Shown: piece by piece, positions 2,874 through 10,719 of the stretch
Layout of the letters: each line of letters opens with the position of its first letter
Position numbering within the stretch: the first letter of the stretch is position 1
DNA from: Bacteroidales bacterium
GTDB lineage: Bacteria > Bacteroidota > Bacteroidia > Bacteroidales > UBA1715
Reading direction: 5' to 3'
Assembly: GCA_045615765.1 (NCBI GenBank)
Contig: JAZLFM010000047.1
Location: forward strand, 6,370 to 70,369
Length of the DNA: 64,000 bases
Program-made: the position numbers and the translations under genes
Notes under the pieces: model-generated
Told to the model about the DNA's origin: nothing
Databases searched by the model: none
What the model saw: the letters and a program-made list of their open reading frames with translations, nothing else

Positions 2874-3080
2874 ATGGGATTGAGTTCGAATGTTTTATGG
2901 CATCAAACTAACAAAGATGCTTTATTAAAAATTCTAAAAGAGAAATGTATTCGTTTTTCTTTTAGTCGAGAATATTTTCCAACCTCGGGATTATCATATG
3001 CTTTTCCTATGATTAGTTTATCAGATTTACCTTTTTCTGAATTAGATTATAACCACGAAATTAAAAAGTACACGTTTTGA
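2874..3080 (+). pseudogene. AbiGi-like abortive-infection protein, N-terminal fragment (disrupted by insertion)
   Basis: SSNVLWHQTNKDALLKILKEK...FPMISLSDLPFSEL matches the conserved AbiGi N-terminus. The ORF stops after 68 aa, at the point where the conserved KYGxYGIGF core should follow. Confidence 0.6.
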
Positions 3081-3499
3081 ACTTACTTTTGCACTTTTTT
3101 AAAACTGCATTAAAAAGCAGTTAAATATTTAATTTACAATAAATTACAATGTTTTTCTATGTTTTTTTAGTTCCATTTTTTTAAAAAATGGAACTTATTT
3201 TTGTTTAAGTTATTGAAACTCAATAAAATAATATATATATTTAATGGAACTTTTTCCTTGTTTTGCACGTTTTTCCCTGTTAATAAAATCAAAAAGTACA
3301 GGTTTTAAAAATCTTGTTTAAATTCTTGTAACTTATTGATTTATATGTTTAAACAAATTTCAAACCTTGTATTTTATTGAAATTCAATCATTTACGCATT
3401 ATAAAAAATAGGCAAAAACACACATTATTTTATAAGTTGTTGATTTTAATGTTTAAACACTTGCTATTTAAAGTTTTTGTTTAACAATAACAAACAAGC

Positions 3500-3534
3500 A
3501 CAAAAAAACCAGCCTTGGGGGGGTGGGGCTGGTT
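3500..3534 (-). terminator. rho-independent terminator downstream of the capsid gene
   Basis: Stem aaccagcc/ggctggtt with a G-rich loop. On the minus strand it is followed by a T-run. Confidence 0.65.
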
Positions 3535-3563
3535 AAAACATTGTGTGCCGTCAATGTTTTATT

Positions 3564-4457
3564 TTATTCTTCTTGTGTTGCGTCCGCTTTTGAAACCAAA
3601 GCCCCAACGCCTTTCCCCCTTATTGGTGCGGCTATAAAACGTTTGTCAAATCCTACTATGGTTCCTCTATAATGTGGGTCGTTTTGGCTTTCGTACATAT
3701 TGATTTCTCCGTCTGCCTTAAACACTTCGCCAGCCTGAAACGCAATACTTGCAAAAACATCACTATCTTCAGCATCAGCACCAAATGAAACCTTTGTCAA
3801 AACGTTTTCTACCATTCTATAAGTAGGCAAAAAATTAAATGTAAATATGCCGAAACCCGCGAATTTAAAAGGCTCTCCGTTCTTCAAATCCGTGATTTCC
3901 TTAAATAGTTTTGTGTCTTGGCGTAGCAAGTCCGAAACGTGTTTAGGGTGCAATACAATAAACCTGTTGTTTGGGTCTATAACTGCATCGTCAAAACGTT
4001 CTTTTAACGTCAAAATGTCGTCAATAGAAAGCGTTTTGCGTCCGTTTCTTGTTTCTCCTGTTACCTCCAAAACGGGCGTGTCGTTCGTGTCTTTAAGCGG
4101 TGCGAATGCGTGTATTGCTTTTTTTGCCGTTGCAAGTCGCAAAACGTTACGATAATGGCGTACTATACTTTCTACTTTGTCGTACGAGTATTCAACCGCA
4201 TCGGGAGCAATTACAAGCCCGTTTTCAGTTTCAAATTTATCAAGCGTAAATTCGTTGTCTTGGTCGGTTCTTTGCACTATGTCAATTGGGTAAGTAGTGT
4301 TATTTATCAACACTTTCGGGTCAATGCCTGTGCTTGGTAGGTGCAATTTATGCCCGTCCGTAAATGCCGAATAATCAACCACTTTTTTCAAAAAATTGTC
4401 TTCCGGGTAGAAATTTTCTTTAATTTGACCAACCCAAATTTCTTTGTTTAATGCCAT
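3564..4457 (-). CDS. phage major capsid protein (putative HK97-fold)
   Basis: 297 aa. The N-terminus MALNKEIWVGQIKENFYPEDNFL...PSTGIDPKVLINNTTYPI is typical of a Bacteroidales phage capsid family. It sits just downstream of a prohead protease in the same operon. Confidence 0.65.
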   Translation of the reverse strand: MALNKEIWVGQIKENFYPEDNFLKKVVDYSAFTDGHKLHLPSTGIDPKVLINNTTYPIDIVQRTDQDNEFTLDKFETENGLVIAPDAVEYSYDKVESIVRHYRNVLRLATAKKAIHAFAPLKDTNDTPVLEVTGETRNGRKTLSIDDILTLKERFDDAVIDPNNRFIVLHPKHVSDLLRQDTKLFKEITDLKNGEPFKFAGFGIFTFNFLPTYRMVENVLTKVSFGADAEDSDVFASIAFQAGEVFKADGEINMYESQNDPHYRGTIVGFDKRFIAAPIRGKGVGALVSKADATQEE

Positions 4458-4488
4458 TTTGTTTTTTGTTTAGTTAATAATATGTTAT

Positions 4489-4710
4489 TTATTTGTTTAT
4501 CATTACTTTATTACTGCCAATACCTATAAATCCGTCTATTTTTTGGGCTACTCGCAAGTATCGCCAAAACGTAGCAATAGAAATAAATTCCTGTTTTTCT
4601 ATATTTCGTTTAAAAATTGCGGTGCGTGAAAACTTTTGATTTGTTGGTTCAAAATGAACGTCAACTATATGTTTTATTTTCAAAGCCTTATTTATGGTGT
4701 TTGCGTGCAT
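4489..4710 (-). CDS. hypothetical protein between protease and capsid genes
   Basis: 73-aa ORF, tightly packed in the head-gene operon. No recognisable motif. Confidence 0.35.
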   Translation of the reverse strand: MHANTINKALKIKHIVDVHFEPTNQKFSRTAIFKRNIEKQEFISIATFWRYLRVAQKIDGFIGIGSNKVMINK

Positions 4711-4718
4711 ATTTATTT

Positions 4719-5687
4719 TTATTTGCGTTTTTCCTGTTCTAATAAATCGTTGAATAATTGAGGGTTATTTTTAAGCGTTTCGGGTTCGTGCTTGCGATAC
4801 CAATTTAAACCGCCCTTTATTTCTTTGTTTGCCTCTTTAATTAGTTTTGCCAAACTAACTCTATTTGGTAGCATTTCAATCACTTTTTCAAGCGTTGCAA
4901 GCCCCATACGTTCGCCAATAGAAACAAGAATTGGTTTTTGTTCTCCTCCAAATGTTTTTGTTGATAAAAAGGCGTTATTTACGGCAACGACAACACGGCT
5001 TTTATTTTGCTCCGCCCTATCTTTTAAAAGGCTTTCAAATGCTTTTTTATCGGCGTTTGCAAGGCTTAAAAATGCCTGTCTTTCGCTATGCAAAATAAAT
5101 CCTTTTTTACAGGCGTTATTTATTTTTATTTCGCTATCGTCAAGGCGTTTTTTTAACTCTGTCAAAATTTCGCTTTCGTCCGTGTTTTCGTCAAGCCCCA
5201 ACAACTCGCAAACGCTTTTTTCAAAGTTGTTTTTTTCGTCTTCCTCCTTCTGCATTTGCAATTTTAACAAGCCTTTAAAGTCCGTAACGGGTTTTTCTTT
5301 GTACGACAATTTCAATGCGTTTTCGTTGCTCGGTATGTCGCAAATTGAAACCTCCAAAAGGTTAGATTTTGTTATAGTATTGCCCTTTAATTCCACTATA
5401 TCAATAGATATGGAACAACCACGCAAAAAACCGCTTTCGACCTTTTCTTTTACTGCTTTTGCCCGTTCGTCCTTTTCATAAAAAACAGCGTCCGCAAATA
5501 GTGCGTTTTTTTCGGTGCGTATGTTTTCCCAACGACCTATATTTCCCCCCTCCGTGCTATGTGAATAAAGCATAACGGGGTTTTTAATAAATCGGTCTAA
5601 ATTTATGCCGTCAGTTTTTACAATTAAGCCGTAAGAATTTATACTTTCGTCCGACAATCTAAATGTGTTTTTGTTGTTGTGTTCCAT
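4719..5687 (-). CDS. HK97-family prohead serine protease (Peptidase S78-like) fused to a coiled-coil scaffold-like C-terminal region
   Basis: The N-terminal 130 aa (NPVMLYSHS...GRWENI...GFLRGCSISI) fit the S78 His/Ser context. The C-terminal 190 aa are K/E-rich and predicted helical, like delta/scaffold domains. Confidence 0.7.
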   Translation of the reverse strand: MEHNNKNTFRLSDESINSYGLIVKTDGINLDRFIKNPVMLYSHSTEGGNIGRWENIRTEKNALFADAVFYEKDERAKAVKEKVESGFLRGCSISIDIVELKGNTITKSNLLEVSICDIPSNENALKLSYKEKPVTDFKGLLKLQMQKEEDEKNNFEKSVCELLGLDENTDESEILTELKKRLDDSEIKINNACKKGFILHSERQAFLSLANADKKAFESLLKDRAEQNKSRVVVAVNNAFLSTKTFGGEQKPILVSIGERMGLATLEKVIEMLPNRVSLAKLIKEANKEIKGGLNWYRKHEPETLKNNPQLFNDLLEQEKRK

Positions 5688-6222
5688 TGTTTTACGTTTT
5701 TTTGCAATTATAAAACACTATCATTTTGACAAAAAAAAACACTGTCAATTTGATAGTATTTTTTTTTTTACTGTTGCCTGCTTGATTTTTATTTGTTTTC
5801 GGTTAATACTACATAAGTGGGTACACGTTGTTTTTCTTTTCTCTTTCATTTTCAACGTGTACTCTTTTTTGAAACAACGAAAATAAACGCCAAAATTTGA
5901 CACGCAAGGCAAAAACAACGACAAGACGAACAAATACTCACCAAAACAATAAAAACGTCCTAAAACGCAAGAAAACAGCAAAACACAAATTTTGAATTTT
6001 TGTACTTTTTTTATTTTGGTGCTTGTTTTTATAAAAAAATGTGTATTTTTGCATATCCTAAAATTTCATAGTTTGCATTATGCAATTATTTAACTTATTA
6101 AAAATCAATCTTTTACAAATAACGCAAAAATTTGCGTGCTTGTGGGTAGCGGTAACGCCCCAGCGTTTTACTATGAGACGTAGGACAAACACGCATTTTT
6201 TTCAACCTAAATTCATAGTATT

Positions 6223-6402
6223 ATGTGTAACACACAAACAAAAGGCGTAGAGTTGCAAGGCAACAAAAACGCAGTCGCAAACGTTAAAAACGTTGAAATC
6301 AAGCCCGAAATTTTAAAGTTACAGGAATTTATTATTGACTGGTACGGGGAGAACACAAAACAAGCATCAAACCATTTGAGGAGTATTTTTTTGAGTTCGT
6401 AA
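6223..6402 (+). CDS. hypothetical small protein (59 aa), possibly the upstream part of a frameshifted gene
   Basis: ATG ORF just below the track cutoff. It overlaps the open upstream part of the 6432 frame across a T7 run at 6386-6392. Confidence 0.35.
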   Translation: MCNTQTKGVELQGNKNAVANVKNVEIKPEILKLQEFIIDWYGENTKQASNHLRSIFLSS

Positions 6403-6431
6403 ATCAATCACTAAAAAATGACGCTTGTTTA

Positions 6432-6677
6432 TTGGCAACTTACGAAAATGAGTTGTTTTTGTTGCAAAATCTTATTGAAATTTTAGACGTTGAAACACAA
6501 ACATTTGTTTTCAACGAAAACGAACAACAAAGAACGATAAACAAACAAGAAAAAGAAATAACCGAGTTAAAAAAAACAATCCACTACAAAGAAGAGTTGA
6601 TACAGGCACAGGAACAAGAAATAAAAACACACAAACAATTAATTGAACTAAAAAGCAGTCTAAAAATAACTAAATAA
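6432..6677 (+). CDS. hypothetical coiled-coil protein
   Basis: 81 aa, Q/E/K-rich heptad-like sequence. The listed start is TTG, and the frame is already open from 6339. Confidence 0.4.
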   Translation: MATYENELFLLQNLIEILDVETQTFVFNENEQQRTINKQEKEITELKKTIHYKEELIQAQEQEIKTHKQLIELKSSLKITK

Positions 6678-6732
6678 CAAACCAAGCCCCAAACCGATAA
6701 AAAGCGGTTTGGGGCTATAAAATTTTATAGAT

Positions 6733-7419
6733 ATGGAAATAAACACGCTAAAATCAAAATTAAGATTTTTAAATGAACGCTGGACGGACGAACAAAAGAA
6801 ACTATTTAAAACGATAAGAGACGAAGAATATAAACACGTTTTAATAAATGCCTGTTACGAATACGCCAAAACCAACAAAACAAAAATTTCAATTGCGAAA
6901 AAATACAACGTAAACAAGAGATATTTTAAAACGCTAACAATGACAAAAAGACAAAGAGATAAAGCGATAAAGCAAACAAAATACGACCTATACACGTTTA
7001 TTGATACGCATTTAACAACAAGAATAAAAGGAGGTAAAACAACAAGAAACGCAATAGTTAAATTCGGTTTTAAAATGACCGAAACAAACTACAAACAAAT
7101 GATTTTTCGGTACGATTTTATAAACAAAGCAAGCGTGTTATTATATATGGCTGGTATATCTATTGAAAGTATTGAGGCTGGTTTGCACTCACGAAGAAAA
7201 AGTTTTAAAACAATCAACCAATTACTAAAAAACGAAATTTCTATTGAGGAATTTTTGGAATTTGCAAAAACAACCTTTGAAAATTTTAATTCTAATTACG
7301 GCGAGTATTTGACAACTGAAATAATAATTTGTGAAATGAAAAATTTTATATCACGAAAGAAAAAGAGTTTGTTTTATAATCCAACGATTGAAAATTTGAG
7401 TTTGTTTGACGATTTATAA
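6733..7419 (+). CDS. hypothetical protein with a possible HTH (KISIAKKYNVNKRYF)
   Basis: 228-aa ORF with good coding texture. No catalytic motif recognised. A role as DNA-binding, small-terminase-like or replication protein is only speculative. Confidence 0.45.
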   Translation: MEINTLKSKLRFLNERWTDEQKKLFKTIRDEEYKHVLINACYEYAKTNKTKISIAKKYNVNKRYFKTLTMTKRQRDKAIKQTKYDLYTFIDTHLTTRIKGGKTTRNAIVKFGFKMTETNYKQMIFRYDFINKASVLLYMAGISIESIEAGLHSRRKSFKTINQLLKNEISIEEFLEFAKTTFENFNSNYGEYLTTEIIICEMKNFISRKKKSLFYNPTIENLSLFDDL

Positions 7420-7581
7420 TTGTTAATAACTTTTTTTGTTTGTTTTTGTAACCTAAAATGAACACCCAAAGTAAAAAGTACAATTTTCAAAAAAACAACC
7501 CTTGATTTTCAATAACTTGCAAAAAAAAGTAATACCCAACACCGAGTAACCTATTAAAAAAAAGGTGTAACCTAAAATAAA

Positions 7582-7625
7582 AGAACGCCCAAGCGGAATT
7601 TTTAGCCGTTTGGGCGTTCTTTTTA
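7582..7625 (+). terminator. rho-independent terminator after the plus-strand genes of the mini-element
   Basis: 11-bp stem agaacgcccaa/ttgggcgttct followed by TTTT. Confidence 0.6.
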
Positions 7626-7679
7626 GTATTTATGGGCGTTTGAACGCTGTTTTAATAAATATAGCGTTAAAATCAGCAA

Positions 7680-7790
7680 AAAGAACTTAAATAGAACTTA
7701 AATAGAATATAAATGGAACTGAAATAGAACATTTTACAGCGTTTCAGTAGTGAAAAATAGAACATAAATAGAACTAAAATGGAACTTTCA
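7680..7790. promoter_or_regulatory. cluster of 8 AAAT(A/G)GAAC-type iterons with about 11-nt phasing
   Basis: GAAC cores lie near 7683, 7694, 7704, 7716 and 7727, then 7760, 7771 and 7782. The same motif forms a perfect palindrome at 3169-3196 and recurs at 3243-3251. Confidence 0.6.
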
Positions 7791-7838
7791 AAAACGTATG
7801 TCTCTCAGTAATAGTACTTTTCATTTTAGTGCCTATAA

Positions 7839-8390
7839 GATACATTTTTAGGCAAATATGGAGATTATATGATCGGTTTCTCACGAGAATGGGGTCATAA
7901 GAACCATTTCAATCCTGTGTTGTATTGCGAGCAATTTTCTTATGTAGATCAATGGGTTACGAACAATTTAAGTTCACAAACAAAGTGTTTTGACGTGATT
8001 TCTTACATAAAACCAGTTGAAGGTCCATTACCCAAACGAAACATGAAGGTTTATCGTTTTTATGACGAACGTGAAGTTAGATTAGTACTTCCACCAGAAA
8101 AGTTTACAGTATTATCAGATTCAGAATACGAACAATACAAAAAACAAAATAACGGTAATTCATGTACAAAGATGGCAATACCTTTTGATTTAAACGATAT
8201 CAAATATATCATTGTCTTAAATGAGAATAACATTGCCGAGGTAAAGAAAGTATTAAACAACTCAAACCCATCTAATTCACTTCCAATAATATTAACAAAA
8301 AAACAAATAGAAGATGATATTATTGGGAAAAATCACAATGTTAAGATATCAGATATTATGAATGATGATAACATTATGATTGTAGAATAA
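7839..8390 (+). pseudogene. AbiGi-like abortive-infection protein, C-terminal fragment
   Basis: The frame is open from 7839 (DTFLGKYGDYMIGFSREWGHKNHFNPVLY...). This is the conserved AbiGi core missing from the fragment at 2874-3080. Confidence 0.6.
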
Positions 8391-8410
8391 TAACAAGTAT
8401 ATGTTCTTTA

Positions 8411-8610
8411 ACGCAGAATTCCTCACGGGGTTCTGCGTTTTTTGTTTGTAAATATGAGCAGCGTACCTACGGCACGCAGTATTTTCGTGAGATTGTTGTT
8501 TTACCAAGGCATTGCTCCTACAGAGCTGATTGTAATAGCTCCGTTAGGAGCTAAGTATCGGTAGAAAACGTAATATTATTGCATTTTTTGCGTGCCGTAG
8601 GTACGCTGCA
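8411..8610. repeat. REP family-1 composite (terminator-like hairpin + forward half + reverse half) immediately upstream of the RAYT gene
   Basis: 8411-8456 is nearly identical to 713-760. The halves at 8457-8527 and 8537-8610 match those at 762-836 and 912-985. Confidence 0.85.
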
Positions 8611-8650
8611 ATATTTATTTTCATACATTTGTATAGCAACATCAATTATT

Positions 8651-9112
8651 ATGGCAAATACATTTACACAAATTCACATTCATATTGTTTTTGCTGTGCA
8701 AAATCGACAATCTTTAATTTTAGAAAATTGGGAATTTCGCCTACACAAATATATAACAGCAATTATTCAGGCAAAAGGTCATAAAGTTCTCGCAATTGGG
8801 GGTATGCCTGACCATATACACATTCTTATTGGTTGGAGACCTGAATATGCTATTTCCGATTTAATAAGAAAGGTAAAATCGGAAAGCTCTAAATGGATTA
8901 ATGAAAACAAATTTGTTTTAGGAAAGTTTTCTTGGCAGGAAGGATATGGTGCATTTTCTTATAGTAAGTCGCAAGTTCCTCGCGTTATAAAATATATCTT
9001 GCAACAAAAATTGCATCACAAAAGCAAAACATTTATAGATGAATACAAGAAAATTTTAACAGAATTGGGTATTCAATTTGATGAAAGATATTTGTTTCAT
9101 AATATAGAATAG
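8651..9112 (+). CDS. REP-associated tyrosine transposase (RAYT, IS200/IS605 Y1 HUH family), copy 1
   Basis: HUH motif DHIHILIG and the C-terminal YILQQKLHH Tyr motif. Flanked by inverted REP halves. The ORF-track start at 8579 lies inside the REP, so Met at 8651 (MANTFTQIHIH) is preferred. Confidence 0.8.
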   Translation: MANTFTQIHIHIVFAVQNRQSLILENWEFRLHKYITAIIQAKGHKVLAIGGMPDHIHILIGWRPEYAISDLIRKVKSESSKWINENKFVLGKFSWQEGYGAFSYSKSQVPRVIKYILQQKLHHKSKTFIDEYKKILTELGIQFDERYLFHNIE

Positions 9113-9267
9113 CTGCATACCTACGGCACGCGAACATAGCATTATCAGTTATGTTTTACCAAGACATTGCTCCTACGGAGCATATGGTTTCAATGGTATT
9201 TATAAAAGTTCTGTTTGTACATTTCTGATTATTGCAAAATTCCCCAACGGGGTTCTGCGTTTTTTTA
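9113..9267. repeat. REP family-1 forward half plus conserved middle segment and hairpin
   Basis: gctgcatacctacggcacgc...gctcctacggagc is followed by a segment homologous to 837-910, ending in ggggttctgcgttttttt. Confidence 0.8.
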
Positions 9268-10386
9268 TAGTAAAACCTCGTAATAATTTTCGGGAGTTAC
9301 TGTAACGATTTCTGTATTAGGATACGCGTTTAGAAATGTTTTGGAAATCTTTGCTTTTTTCTTTGGATTCCATTTAAATTCGTATGCTATTAATTTGCCG
9401 TCTTTGTCTTCTATATAGTCAATTTCTTGTTGTTGGGTGGTTCTCCAAAAGTAAGATAGTGCATAGCTGCCAGAATATTCTTTCTTTTTCTTTAACTCGC
9501 TAATCATATAGTTTTCCCATAGTTTTCCTTGGTCATCACGAAGTTCTATGTCATTGAAGTTGCCAATTAAAGCATTACGAATACCATTGTCGTAGAAATA
9601 TATTTTCTTGCTCATCTTTAATTCGTTGCGAAGATTTCTGCTAAATGAGCCTAATCGAAAAATAATCTGAATTTGCTCTAACAATGTTATGTATTTTTCA
9701 ACAGTTGCTTTATCCATGCTGATGGTATTAGCTAATTCTGTGTAGGAAACTTCGCTTCCCACTTGATATGCCAATGCCTGTAATAGTTTTACAAGTTTGT
9801 CAGGATGTTTTATTCTTTCCCATTCCAGGATGTCTTTATAGAGATAACTATTGGTTAGTTGCGACAAAATCGCTTTTTCATTACCTTTATTGTTTACAAC
9901 ATCAGGATAACAGCCATAAACTAATCGAAGAGGTAAATTTCTTATTTCCTCCAGCGTACCAAAATGTTGTTGCAATTCAGAAAAAGAAAAAGGATACAAC
10001 TGATATTCCCATTTCCTTCCGGTTAATGGCTCGTTTATTCGATTGGAAAGTTCAAATGCTGAGCTTCCTGTAATGAGCAATTGAACATTTGGTAAGTTGT
10101 CCGTTATCAGTTTCATTTGCAGCCCAATATTTTCAACTCGTTGGGCTTCGTCAACAACTATCAGATCGCAATTTCCAAACAACGATGGTAGTTTATTGAT
10201 AGTAAGATTTGAAATTAAGTTTCTTACTATTATGTCATCGGCGTCTAACCATTGGACGTTTTTCCCGTCTTTTGACAATTCTTTTAACAATGTAGTTTTT
10301 CCTGTTTGGCGTGCACCAATAAGAACAATAGCCTTGCCAGAGTTCATCAAGCTTCTTAATATGGGCAATAGTTGTCTTTGAATCAT
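9265..10386 (-). CDS. AAA-family ATPase with DUF4143-type C-terminal domain
   Basis: Walker A GARQTGKTT and Walker B LIVVDEAQ. The length and C-terminal EIDYI...EFKW pattern are typical of the AAA_14/DUF4143 family. Confidence 0.7.
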   Translation of the reverse strand: MIQRQLLPILRSLMNSGKAIVLIGARQTGKTTLLKELSKDGKNVQWLDADDIIVRNLISNLTINKLPSLFGNCDLIVVDEAQRVENIGLQMKLITDNLPNVQLLITGSSAFELSNRINEPLTGRKWEYQLYPFSFSELQQHFGTLEEIRNLPLRLVYGCYPDVVNNKGNEKAILSQLTNSYLYKDILEWERIKHPDKLVKLLQALAYQVGSEVSYTELANTISMDKATVEKYITLLEQIQIIFRLGSFSRNLRNELKMSKKIYFYDNGIRNALIGNFNDIELRDDQGKLWENYMISELKKKKEYSGSYALSYFWRTTQQQEIDYIEDKDGKLIAYEFKWNPKKKAKISKTFLNAYPNTEIVTVTPENYYEVLL

Positions 10387-10521
10387 ATTCAGCTTCTTTT
10401 AAAGCAAAGATAAAAAAATAATATTTCAACGAGTTAATTCTCCGAAAATTATAATATTCGGGGAATTGATTCTCCGAATGTTGCAAATTTACCAATTGTC
10501 TGCCCCAAATGACAAAGTCAA

Positions 10522-10595
10522 GCTGCGTACCTACGGCACGCAAACATAGCGTTATTATTTATGTTTTACCAAGACACTGCTCCTACGGAGCACAT
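10522..10595. repeat. REP family-1 forward half (solo)
   Basis: gctgcgtacctacggcacgc...atgttttaccaagacactgctcctacggagcacatag, nearly identical to 9113-9185. Confidence 0.8.
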
Positions 10596-10719
10596 AGTTT
10601 TTTTACACCCAAAAGATAACAAGAAAACCTGTTGGCTTCGTGATTCCAAAAGACAAAAACCAATAAACACTTTATTGCAGGAAAAATTCTATATTTGTAC
10701 GATTTTAATTCTAACAGTT

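Follow-up and report, generated by a model that had tools for sequence, protein, structure and literature searches.

A 64,000-nucleotide stretch of DNA from a Bacteroidales bacterium of the UBA1715 lineage (GenBank assembly GCA_045615765.1, contig JAZLFM010000047.1, positions 6,370 to 70,369 of the forward strand), hereafter the window, harbors an abortive-infection gene of the AbiGi family split by a 4790-bp insert that encodes a phage-type major capsid protein and a prohead protease. We report that this insert is a mobile element, that it entered the AbiGi gene by Mu-type transposition, and that it derives from autonomous mini-Mu elements of 7-8 kb and lacks a transposase. The interpretation that we favor, with somewhat better than even confidence, is that it is a non-autonomous member of a family of mini-Mu elements equipped with their own shell genes and acts as a capsid-forming satellite of transposable phages, and the family probably parasitizes the Mu-like phages of gut Bacteroidales.

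Insertion of a Mu-type element into an AbiGi gene

An initial annotation of the window, made from its sequence, had recognized two AbiGi-like fragments as parts of one gene separated by about 4.8 kb. The 3' fragment (7839-8390) matches the Pfam AbiGi profile over profile positions 47-184 (5.6e-12) and the C-terminal part of phrog_13416 (8e-20), and a PHROG profile search assigns the 5' fragment (2874-3080) to positions 1-60 of the same family. In silico deletion of positions 3048-7841 joins the 5' part of the gene (2874-3047, forward strand; 58 codons, ending in the left target duplication) in frame to its 3' part (7842-8390, forward strand), generating a single open reading frame (ORF) of 240 aa. 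The restored product matches Pfam AbiGi (PF10899) in one stretch that spans the join (residues 42-183; 1.1e-17) and the PADLOC AbiGi model in one stretch as well (residues 4-210; 6.6e-23); by profile, the restored gene is a full-length AbiGi member. Alignment with full-length homologs (257-285 aa) is gap-free at the junction, where PMISLSDLPFSEL is followed by DTFLGKYGDY and faces PMISLCDLPFSEMSDYLGKYGDY in the homologs. The two fragments therefore rejoin into one AbiGi ORF, confirming that a single gene has been split. No near-identical intact allele that could represent the empty site was found in the protein database, where the best intact homologs are 45-48% identical, and for this reason the gene restored in silico stands in for it.

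The insert spans window positions 3048-7837 and is bordered on both sides by AGAT (3044-3047 and 7838-7841), read from the sequence as the left and right copies of a target-site duplication (TSD). These limits are in agreement with two further lines of evidence. L005, one of the contigs and loci with a related capsid that are designated here by L-numbers, aligns with 3.7 kb of the window at 94.9% identity until the homology ends, exactly at 3048, beyond which the flanks are unrelated, and both ends were picked independently by a position weight matrix (PWM). Each AGAT abuts one of two imperfect 24-bp terminal inverted repeats (TIR). The repeat on the capsid side (TATAACCACGAAATTAAAAAGTAC; 3048-3071, forward strand) is the equivalent of a phage right end, comparable to TATAATCGGCAAAACGAAACGGG in phage012a, a Mu-like Porphyromonas phage, and to TATAATCACGAAATTAAAAACAAC in L079, and the opposite repeat (7814-7837, reverse strand; TATAGGCACTAAAATGAAAAGTAC as reverse complement) is, by comparison with phage012a, the equivalent of a phage left end. 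Repeat analysis also revealed subterminal copies of the end motif at 3279-3305 (forward strand, with AAAATCAAAAAGTACAGG), a likely second transposase-binding site, and at 7461-7487 (forward strand, with AAAGTAAAAAGTACAATTTT), as well as an iteron array of about eight units (AAATAGAAC, 11-bp period; unit TTCTATTT) at 7678-7790, 50-160 bp inside the end. An internal end-like copy (AAGCACCAAAATAAAAAAAGTAC) was located by motif search in a divergent intergenic region (5990-6027, reverse strand), and the element contains five copies of AAAGTAC, compared with an average of 1.0 over 500 shuffles (of which the highest also gave 5). An indel between the arms of the end motif caused the ends of the window element and of L007 to be missed by an ungapped TIR-plus-TSD scan; both were found by the weight-matrix scan.

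This arrangement differs from what had been anticipated. The initial annotation had proposed to define att sites by way of an uninterrupted AbiGi allele; the ends are instead Mu-type inverted repeats with subterminal repeats and a 4-bp duplication, and there are therefore no attL and attR of a site-specific recombinase to define.

Relatives, target sites and kinship with Mu-like phages

Searches with the capsid protein returned 831 homologs at E<=1e-10, with the best 120 clusters all at least 60% identical, and a scan of one genome per species identified 79 loci across the Bacteroidales and other Bacteroidota. Further copies, which the initial annotation had proposed to look for, are thus present as relatives in many genomes, L005 included. 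Their contigs present the same compact module amid ordinary housekeeping genes, at sites that differ between genomes. The PWM was built from element ends and chooses each end independently. With the ends that it chose, perfect direct repeats of 4 bp flank 30 elements, which range from 3.9 to 8.2 kb; the matrix contains no end sequence from 11 of these, among them the window copy, and only two loci with good ends lack such a repeat. The duplicated tetranucleotides vary by site (ATTT, CATG, CGAT, GATC, GCCG and others) and define no consensus. When the element and one repeat were removed, half of the elements (15/30) yielded a restored ORF across the junction, with lengths from 100 to over 1000 aa, and no junction-spanning ORF of at least 100 aa was seen in the other 15. 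From our reading of the restored ORFs, we take the interrupted genes to include those for SusC-like receptors, glycosidases, a sialidase and an IS30 transposase. The restored ORFs validate the boundaries independently and indicate that insertion is close to random.

Because the relatives sit in assorted genes and their tetranucleotides lack a consensus, the hit on AbiGi looks incidental, and AbiGi looks like one more non-essential gene struck by near-random transposition. A reading close to that of the initial annotation is a site-specific, integrase-less island of the kind known as capsid-forming phage-inducible chromosomal islands (cf-PICI), targeting AbiGi and thereby disarming a defense on behalf of its helper. 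The presence of capsid and protease genes without an integrase, and the inactivation of a defense gene, agree with that proposal. It is nonetheless very improbable, given that the duplicated tetranucleotides and flanking genes differ at each locus, that 15 of the 30 relatives lie in unrelated genes with only the window copy in AbiGi, that the ends are Mu-type inverted repeats and not direct att repeats, and that portal, connector and integrase genes are absent.

Several loci provide evidence of movement. L005, whose capsid is 96% identical to that of the window element, is a near-identical copy at another locus, indicative of recent mobility. L073 and L074 carry the same element of approximately 8.3 kb (94.7% identical) in different genomes, with duplications AACT and CATG, respectively. 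The complete genome of Gaoshiqia hydrogeniformans (NZ_CP186334.1) contains two 100%-identical, transposase-bearing copies of 7610 bp with 5'-TG...CA-3' ends (L065 and L066), located at about 4.49 and 4.96 Mb in inverted orientation. Their flanks read GACG/TATT and TATT/GACG, an exchange that points to two 4-bp duplications followed by a ~460-kb inversion through recombination between the copies. Furthermore, a contig of a Phocaeicola oris isolate (L021; NODE_44, 3967 bp) corresponds exactly to one element from end to end, and its 443x coverage is characteristic of a repeat that is multi-copy or in active transposition. A comparable contig from an isolate assembly of Parabacteroides distasonis (L067; NODE_100, 3962 bp, coverage 1520) was found to be a fragment of a transposase-bearing element. 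Separately, eight loci with Bacteroidota-type elements (L014, L029, L035, L042, L048, L050, L056 and L073) come from metagenome-assembled genomes (MAGs) labeled Ruminococcus, Christensenella, Acutalibacteraceae, Gastranaerophilales, Bacillota or Rhizobium, labels that probably reflect mis-binning of a multi-copy mobile element. In one Cyclobacteriaceae MAG, a repeat of about 1.5 kb is present in five copies that are 98-99.8% identical (L083, L085, L087, L089 and L090). It comprises the C-terminal two thirds of the capsid gene beside a MuB-like fragment, and appears to derive from an element by decay or rearrangement and to have multiplied in its turn.

To relate the element to phages, we compared both its ends and its genes. 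The phage012a record starts with TATAGGGCACAAAACGACACGGG, and this sequence and the reverse complement of its last bases, TATAATCGGCAAAACGAAACGGG, correspond to the two end types of the elements, with the motif repeated subterminally. The termini of phage012a (TATAGGGCACAAAACGA and TATAATCGGCAAAACGAAACG) and those of hankyphage p00 (TAAGGGGGGAGAAACGA and TAAATCCGGAAAAACC) represent two variants that both recur among the elements, the hankyphage type being seen, for instance, in L040 and L052. Both phages and nearly all elements have iterons of 8-11 bp located 65-200 bp inside the left end, and the TTTACAT-type iteron unit of the phages recurs in some elements. Judged by these sequence comparisons, the element and the Mu-like transposable phages of Bacteroidota have ends of one type. 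The nearest real phages by capsid (~29% identity) are Porphyromonas gingivalis phages, annotated with a transposase, a MuB-like activator, a Gam-like protein, terminase, portal and tails; hankyphage is likewise annotated with a transposase, a MuB-like protein, portal and terminase, and phage012a has a Gam-like gene. When the complete insert was searched as DNA, none of 50,697 phage records matched. Four small virome records labeled 'Bacteriophage sp.' (L001-L004) were considered as relatives and rejected as fragments of ordinary higher-GC phages.

Searching about 140 loci from genomes and a viral-contig collection by tblastn with MuA, MuB, large terminase (TerL) and portal queries resolved three classes. 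At capsid identities of at least 56% (~50 loci, of the 4-5-kb type), MuA, MuB, TerL and portal are all absent, the exception being L082 (58%), which has MuA and MuB. At 47-58% identity (~55 loci, many on contigs of 5-9 kb), TerL and portal are never present, and most loci have genes resembling MuA and MuB some 5 kb upstream. At 44% or less, TerL, mostly together with portal, lies beside the capsid gene on contigs of up to 20-40 kb. In total, tblastn found neither TerL nor portal in about 100 mini-element loci. Pfam analysis of the middle class identified rve and Mu-transpos_C domains in proteins of 600-700 aa, AAA_22/TniB domains in proteins of about 280 aa, a cI-type repressor and a ClpP-type protease-scaffold. 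The limits of elements in this class were set by comparison between copies (L065 with L066, and L073 with L074). Within these collections, capsid identity to real phages does not exceed 44%, and the mini-element capsids form a clade of their own.

These results define the standing of the window element. It has the ends and subterminal motifs of a Mu-like element and a duplication of fixed length and variable sequence, and it lacks MuA and MuB of its own, as does the class with at least 56% capsid identity. For the latter reason, we file it as a non-autonomous derivative, a designation consistent with the end consensus that it shares with autonomous relatives (L079, L073 and L060), the absence of a transposase and the signs of recent movement. 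The terminase, portal, tail and lysis modules of a complete Mu-like phage are missing.

Shell proteins, small genes and the c4-2 RNA

The major capsid protein (297 aa; 3564-4457, reverse strand) matches the phrog_267 major head protein family (1.2e-17) and, by tblastn, annotated major capsids of Porphyromonas, Winogradskyella and Flavobacterium phages. An AlphaFold model calculated from 30 homologs (pTM, predicted template modeling score, 0.71; pLDDT, predicted local distance difference test, 69) was compared with known structures using Foldseek, which matched it to 239 PDB chains (E<=1e-3), phage capsids ranking highest with probability 1.0. All 50 of the fold matches listed are HK97-fold shell proteins, nearly all of them tailed-virus capsids, together with gene transfer agent and encapsulin shells. 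The model thus predicts an HK97 fold for the capsid. The adjacent gene (322 aa; 4719-5687, reverse strand) encodes a prohead protease of the S78 type with a scaffold-like C-terminal half. It scores above the Pfam Peptidase_S78 cut-off (24.7 bits against 21), matches the phrog_80 head maturation protease family (7e-15) and Mu-like_Pro, the latter through its scaffold-like half, and is 35% identical (4e-29) to the phage012a prohead protease. Profile searches and modeling therefore bear out the capsid and protease-scaffold assignments of the initial annotation, and no integrase, portal, terminase or tail gene was found in the insert by ORF listing, Pfam, PHROG or tblastn, as that annotation had stated. 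The protease-scaffolds of both mini-element classes share a C-terminal motif, W-x-L-E/D-D-Y-R-K-Y/F-A-P..L..N-P-x-L-Y, which is not evident in the two phage proteases compared.

The occurrence of an HK97-fold shell gene outside a phage, with encapsulins among the weaker fold matches, could also suggest a transposon-borne nanocompartment, in which an encapsulin-like shell would serve a cellular role apart from phages. We regard this as scarcely credible: a protease-scaffold fusion is a feature of virus assembly, both the best fold matches and the nearest sequence relatives (the Mu-like phage capsids) are phage proteins, and no cargo gene is present.

Selection on the shell genes is evident from comparisons between element pairs, in which the ratio of nonsynonymous to synonymous substitution rates (dN/dS) is 0.02-0.16 for the capsid (0.13 against L005), 0.08-0.22 for the protease and 0.15-0.58 for the helix-turn-helix gene described below. 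The capsid and protease genes are under purifying selection, the capsid strongly so. These values bear on the view that the element is an inert remnant, an internally deleted, decaying Mu-like prophage in which the ends and two head genes happen to survive. Such a remnant would account for the absence of a transposase, for the frameshifted gene of the window copy and for the broken protease gene of L005. In contrast, the compact architecture recurs in about 50 loci, equally small, with capsid and protease intact and housekeeping genes as flanks; the capsid dN/dS values are low; the c4-2 RNA described below and the scaffold C-terminal motif are class-specific and absent from the phages compared; the capsids form their own clade, with real phages at most 44% identical; and a near-identical copy resides at a different site. 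The remnant view is largely refuted by these data, to the point of having very little probability left, and the element is not the stump of a larger decaying prophage.

The gene content of the elements is otherwise variable, only protease and capsid being universal and the left-arm genes differing between copies. A conserved small protein (73 aa; 4489-4710, reverse strand), located before or after the capsid gene in relatives, has tblastn matches in L005-L007, L020, L022, L027, L032, L040, L041, L043, L047 and L080. Two of the four small ORFs listed initially (6223-6402 and 6432-6677) are in fact one frameshifted coiled-coil gene of 151 aa (6223-6677, forward strand). It is broken in the window by a 1-base deletion in a T-run (6386-6392; T7 against T8 in L005) and intact in L005, where the protease gene is broken instead; the two lesions may reflect inactivation, slippage or assembly error. 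The 151-aa product has no match in Pfam or PHROG. As side observations on gene content, L020 and L022 have capsids identical at the protein level (dS, the synonymous substitution rate, 0.005) and differ in the gene beside c4-2 (94 plus 82 aa against 158 aa), which indicates modular exchange within the left arm, and an extra gene of about 300 aa lies between the capsid and the right end in L073 (9244-10203) and L051 (6840-7739).

The last gene (6733-7419, forward strand) encodes a fast-evolving, all-helical protein of 228 aa, followed on its 3' side by a hairpin with an 18-bp stem (7579-7623, forward strand), detected as an inverted repeat, that is a likely terminator. The protein has no family match in Pfam or PHROG; a word-indexed search returned only the protein itself and an exhaustive HMMER search found only two homologs in 1.8 billion representatives. 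Structure prediction, which had been proposed for three of the ORFs and which gave an HK97 fold for 3564-4457, produced a poor model here (pLDDT 64), with no fold match below E 0.3. The protein aligns with a family of tandem helix-turn-helix (HTH) proteins that occupy the same position in many elements, and is on this basis called a predicted DNA-binding protein. Ten of the 19 members of that family weakly match a small-terminase PHROG, three match phrog_4151, to which the small terminases of hankyphage and phage012a belong, and weak matches to regulator PHROGs were also seen among relatives. We do not claim a small-terminase identity for the 228-aa protein, as the profile comparison aligns only 24 HTH columns.

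The operon oriented towards 7837 has at its 5' end a c4-2 RNA (Rfam RF02944, c4 antisense clan; 6130-6200, forward strand), identified with a covariance model and not listed in the initial annotation. Its score is marginal in the window (41.4 bits against a gathering threshold of 41), and homologs scoring 56-72 bits occupy the equivalent position in 19 further transposase-less relatives. Overall, c4-2 is present in 20 of 23 transposase-less elements, in none of the 11 with a transposase and in neither of the two phages. The c4 antisense RNA of the P1/P7 immI region controls an antirepressor. Its Rfam-clan relative here heads an operon of small regulatory genes; by analogy, c4-2 may gate translation of the downstream 151-aa gene, with target pairing and an antirepressor role being putative. 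The c4-2 family itself comes from comparative genomics alone, which defined it as probably a distant homolog of c4 (PMC5737381).

Life cycle, known systems and genomic surroundings

In the satellite reading that we favor, a Mu-like phage or else an autonomous relative would act as helper, its MuA and MuB moving and replicating the element in trans. During the lytic cycle of the helper, the capsid and protease-scaffold of the element would build its own, probably smaller, shell on the helper portal. The helper terminase would fill this shell from a packaging site near the left end, for which the iteron array is a candidate, and the filled shell would be joined to helper tails. Meanwhile, c4-2 might hold the downstream 151-aa and HTH genes in check, as c4 does in antirepressor control by P1/P7. 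The rough geometry of HK97-type shells and the density of packed DNA give capacities of about 5 kb for T=3 and 11 kb for T=4; small heads would suit the two narrow size classes (4-5 kb and 7.5-8.3 kb), a correspondence that does not constitute evidence for them.

A different use of the shell proteins would be interference with phages. Here, the element would spread by hijacked transposition within and between replicons only, its shell proteins would serve chiefly as decoys that disrupt head assembly by incoming Mu-like phages, and the host would keep it as a defense. This is the main rival of the satellite reading, and we consider it unlikely while giving it appreciable weight. The capsid and scaffold are akin to those of Mu-like phages yet belong to a separate clade with its own scaffold C-terminal motif, portal and terminase are missing, and purifying selection fits any protein-level function. 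The location also agrees with interference: an ATPase of 373 aa encoded nearby (9265-10386, reverse strand) matches the PADLOC candidate defense family PDC-S01 (3.3e-161), which places the AbiGi gene in a small defense island. Against interference, the same lineage is found across many genera and families with different flanks, a distribution that needs horizontal transfer, most simply by particles, and the elements fall within narrow size limits (3.9-5.7 kb and 7.5-8.3 kb), as a packaging limit predicts. Interference is moreover compatible with satellite spread and not exclusive of it; the SaPI (Staphylococcus aureus pathogenicity island), P4 and PLE (PICI-like element) satellites both spread and interfere.

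Several points weigh against the satellite reading. Packaging, small capsids and helper dependence are inferred. No helper was identified in the 64-kb window, and a search of viral contigs for the terminal motif gave one chance match, in a tail gene. The contigs of the viral collection are metagenome predictions and as such no proof of encapsidation. The target duplication is of 4 bp and not of the 5 bp that Mu produces. The window copy, frameshifted in one gene, is maybe crippled, or else shows a run-length assembly error, and the HTH protein is not tied to packaging, since only its HTH motif aligns to phage small terminases. Finally, a transposase-less element arriving in a new cell needs a transposase there, which limits the satellite model.

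Comparison with known systems helps to place the element. Like the cf-PICIs of Proteobacteria and Firmicutes, it is small and chromosomal and has its own HK97-type capsid and prohead protease without tail genes, the rest of the virion being presumably borrowed from a helper. cf-PICIs, however, measure 10-15 kb, integrate at att sites with their own integrase and carry portal, head-tail connector and small terminase genes, whereas the element measures 4.8 kb, lacks portal, connectors, small terminase and recombinase, and has Mu-type ends and a 4-bp duplication. The resemblance to cf-PICIs that had been pointed out initially extends to the capsid and protease and not to the integrase with its att sites, the portal, the connectors or the small terminase. 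With the Mu-like phages of Bacteroidota (hankyphage p00, 'Ca. Mubacviridae' and the phage012a group), the element has in common the end type, the subterminal repeats and the left-end iterons, as well as a capsid and a protease that are ~29% and 35% identical, and its relatives have MuA/MuB-like genes. Those phages differ in their size of 34-43 kb and in their terminase, portal, tail, lysis and transposase genes; the element is limited to shell genes. The Mu-like lifestyle has been documented in Bacteroidales (PMC12135933; bioRxiv 10.64898/2026.05.11.724261).

As in laboratory mini-Mu and other non-autonomous transposons resembling miniature inverted-repeat transposable elements, only the ends are provided for a transposase supplied in trans. 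Unlike these, the element keeps a conserved and selected capsid and protease-scaffold and a class-specific RNA, a retained cargo that argues for a life cycle beyond simple transposition. P4, SaPI and PLE offer precedents for what is proposed here, possibly smaller heads for a small genome and parasitism of a helper virion. They integrate site-specifically and redirect the capsid protein of the helper with external or internal scaffolds; the element, in contrast, carries its own capsid protein. Polintons/Mavericks of eukaryotes, which are transposable elements with capsid and maturation-protease genes, provide a conceptual parallel only, as they encode a double jelly-roll capsid, an adenoviral-type protease and a protein-primed polymerase, unrelated proteins in other hosts.

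To our knowledge, known phage satellites integrate with their own recombinases. In the full-text literature searched, coverage of which was incomplete, neither transposable satellites nor mini-elements of Mu type that bear a capsid gene were found to be described; within that limit, this agrees with the initial annotation, which was aware of no described satellite class of such architecture in Bacteroidales. Capsid-forming satellites as such are already known (PMC10085698). We see the element as a phage satellite or capsid-forming island with a transposon lifestyle that has a realistic chance of constituting its own class. The more specific proposition, that transposable satellites form a new class that hijacks MuA/MuB through mimicry of phage ends, carries shell genes only and uses a c4-like RNA switch in its transposase-less forms, strikes us as evenly poised between right and wrong.

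If true, a satellite that is a Mu-type transposon, and whose commonest form has neither recombinase nor portal, would widen the definition of satellites. It would also explain the large set of unannotated Bacteroidales capsid genes represented by the 831 homologs. The element gives the orphan Rfam family c4-2 a genomic context and suggests a testable partner for hankyphage-type phages, which are among the most widespread gut phages and have an incompletely understood life cycle (PMC12135933). Hundreds of copies in gut Bacteroidales could then influence how hankyphage-type phages live and, through headful packaging, mobilize adjacent host DNA. Random insertion inactivates host genes, AbiGi in the window and SusC-like and glycosidase genes elsewhere.

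Around the AbiGi locus, four nearby proteins were scanned (encoded at 29-691, 1416-1661, 1748-2860 and 9265-10386), and none matched an AbiG component, no search having been aimed at AbiGii. Downstream of the split gene, an IS200-like ORF (8579-9112, forward strand), analyzed by Pfam scan only, encodes a Y1 transposase (Y1_Tnp, 6.6e-28). It is surrounded by repeats of 60-290 bp (714-1003, 8410-8627, 9111-9205 and 10521-10615) that are 80-93% identical and partly palindromic, an arrangement that resembles those of repetitive extragenic palindromic sequences and their associated tyrosine transposases (REP/RAYT), and these repeats are the cause of the peptide strings that recur in spurious ORFs. 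Among the relatives, a SAM-II riboswitch (L007 5498-5557) lies upstream of metK, the gene that flanks the element in L007-L011, and is unrelated to the element.

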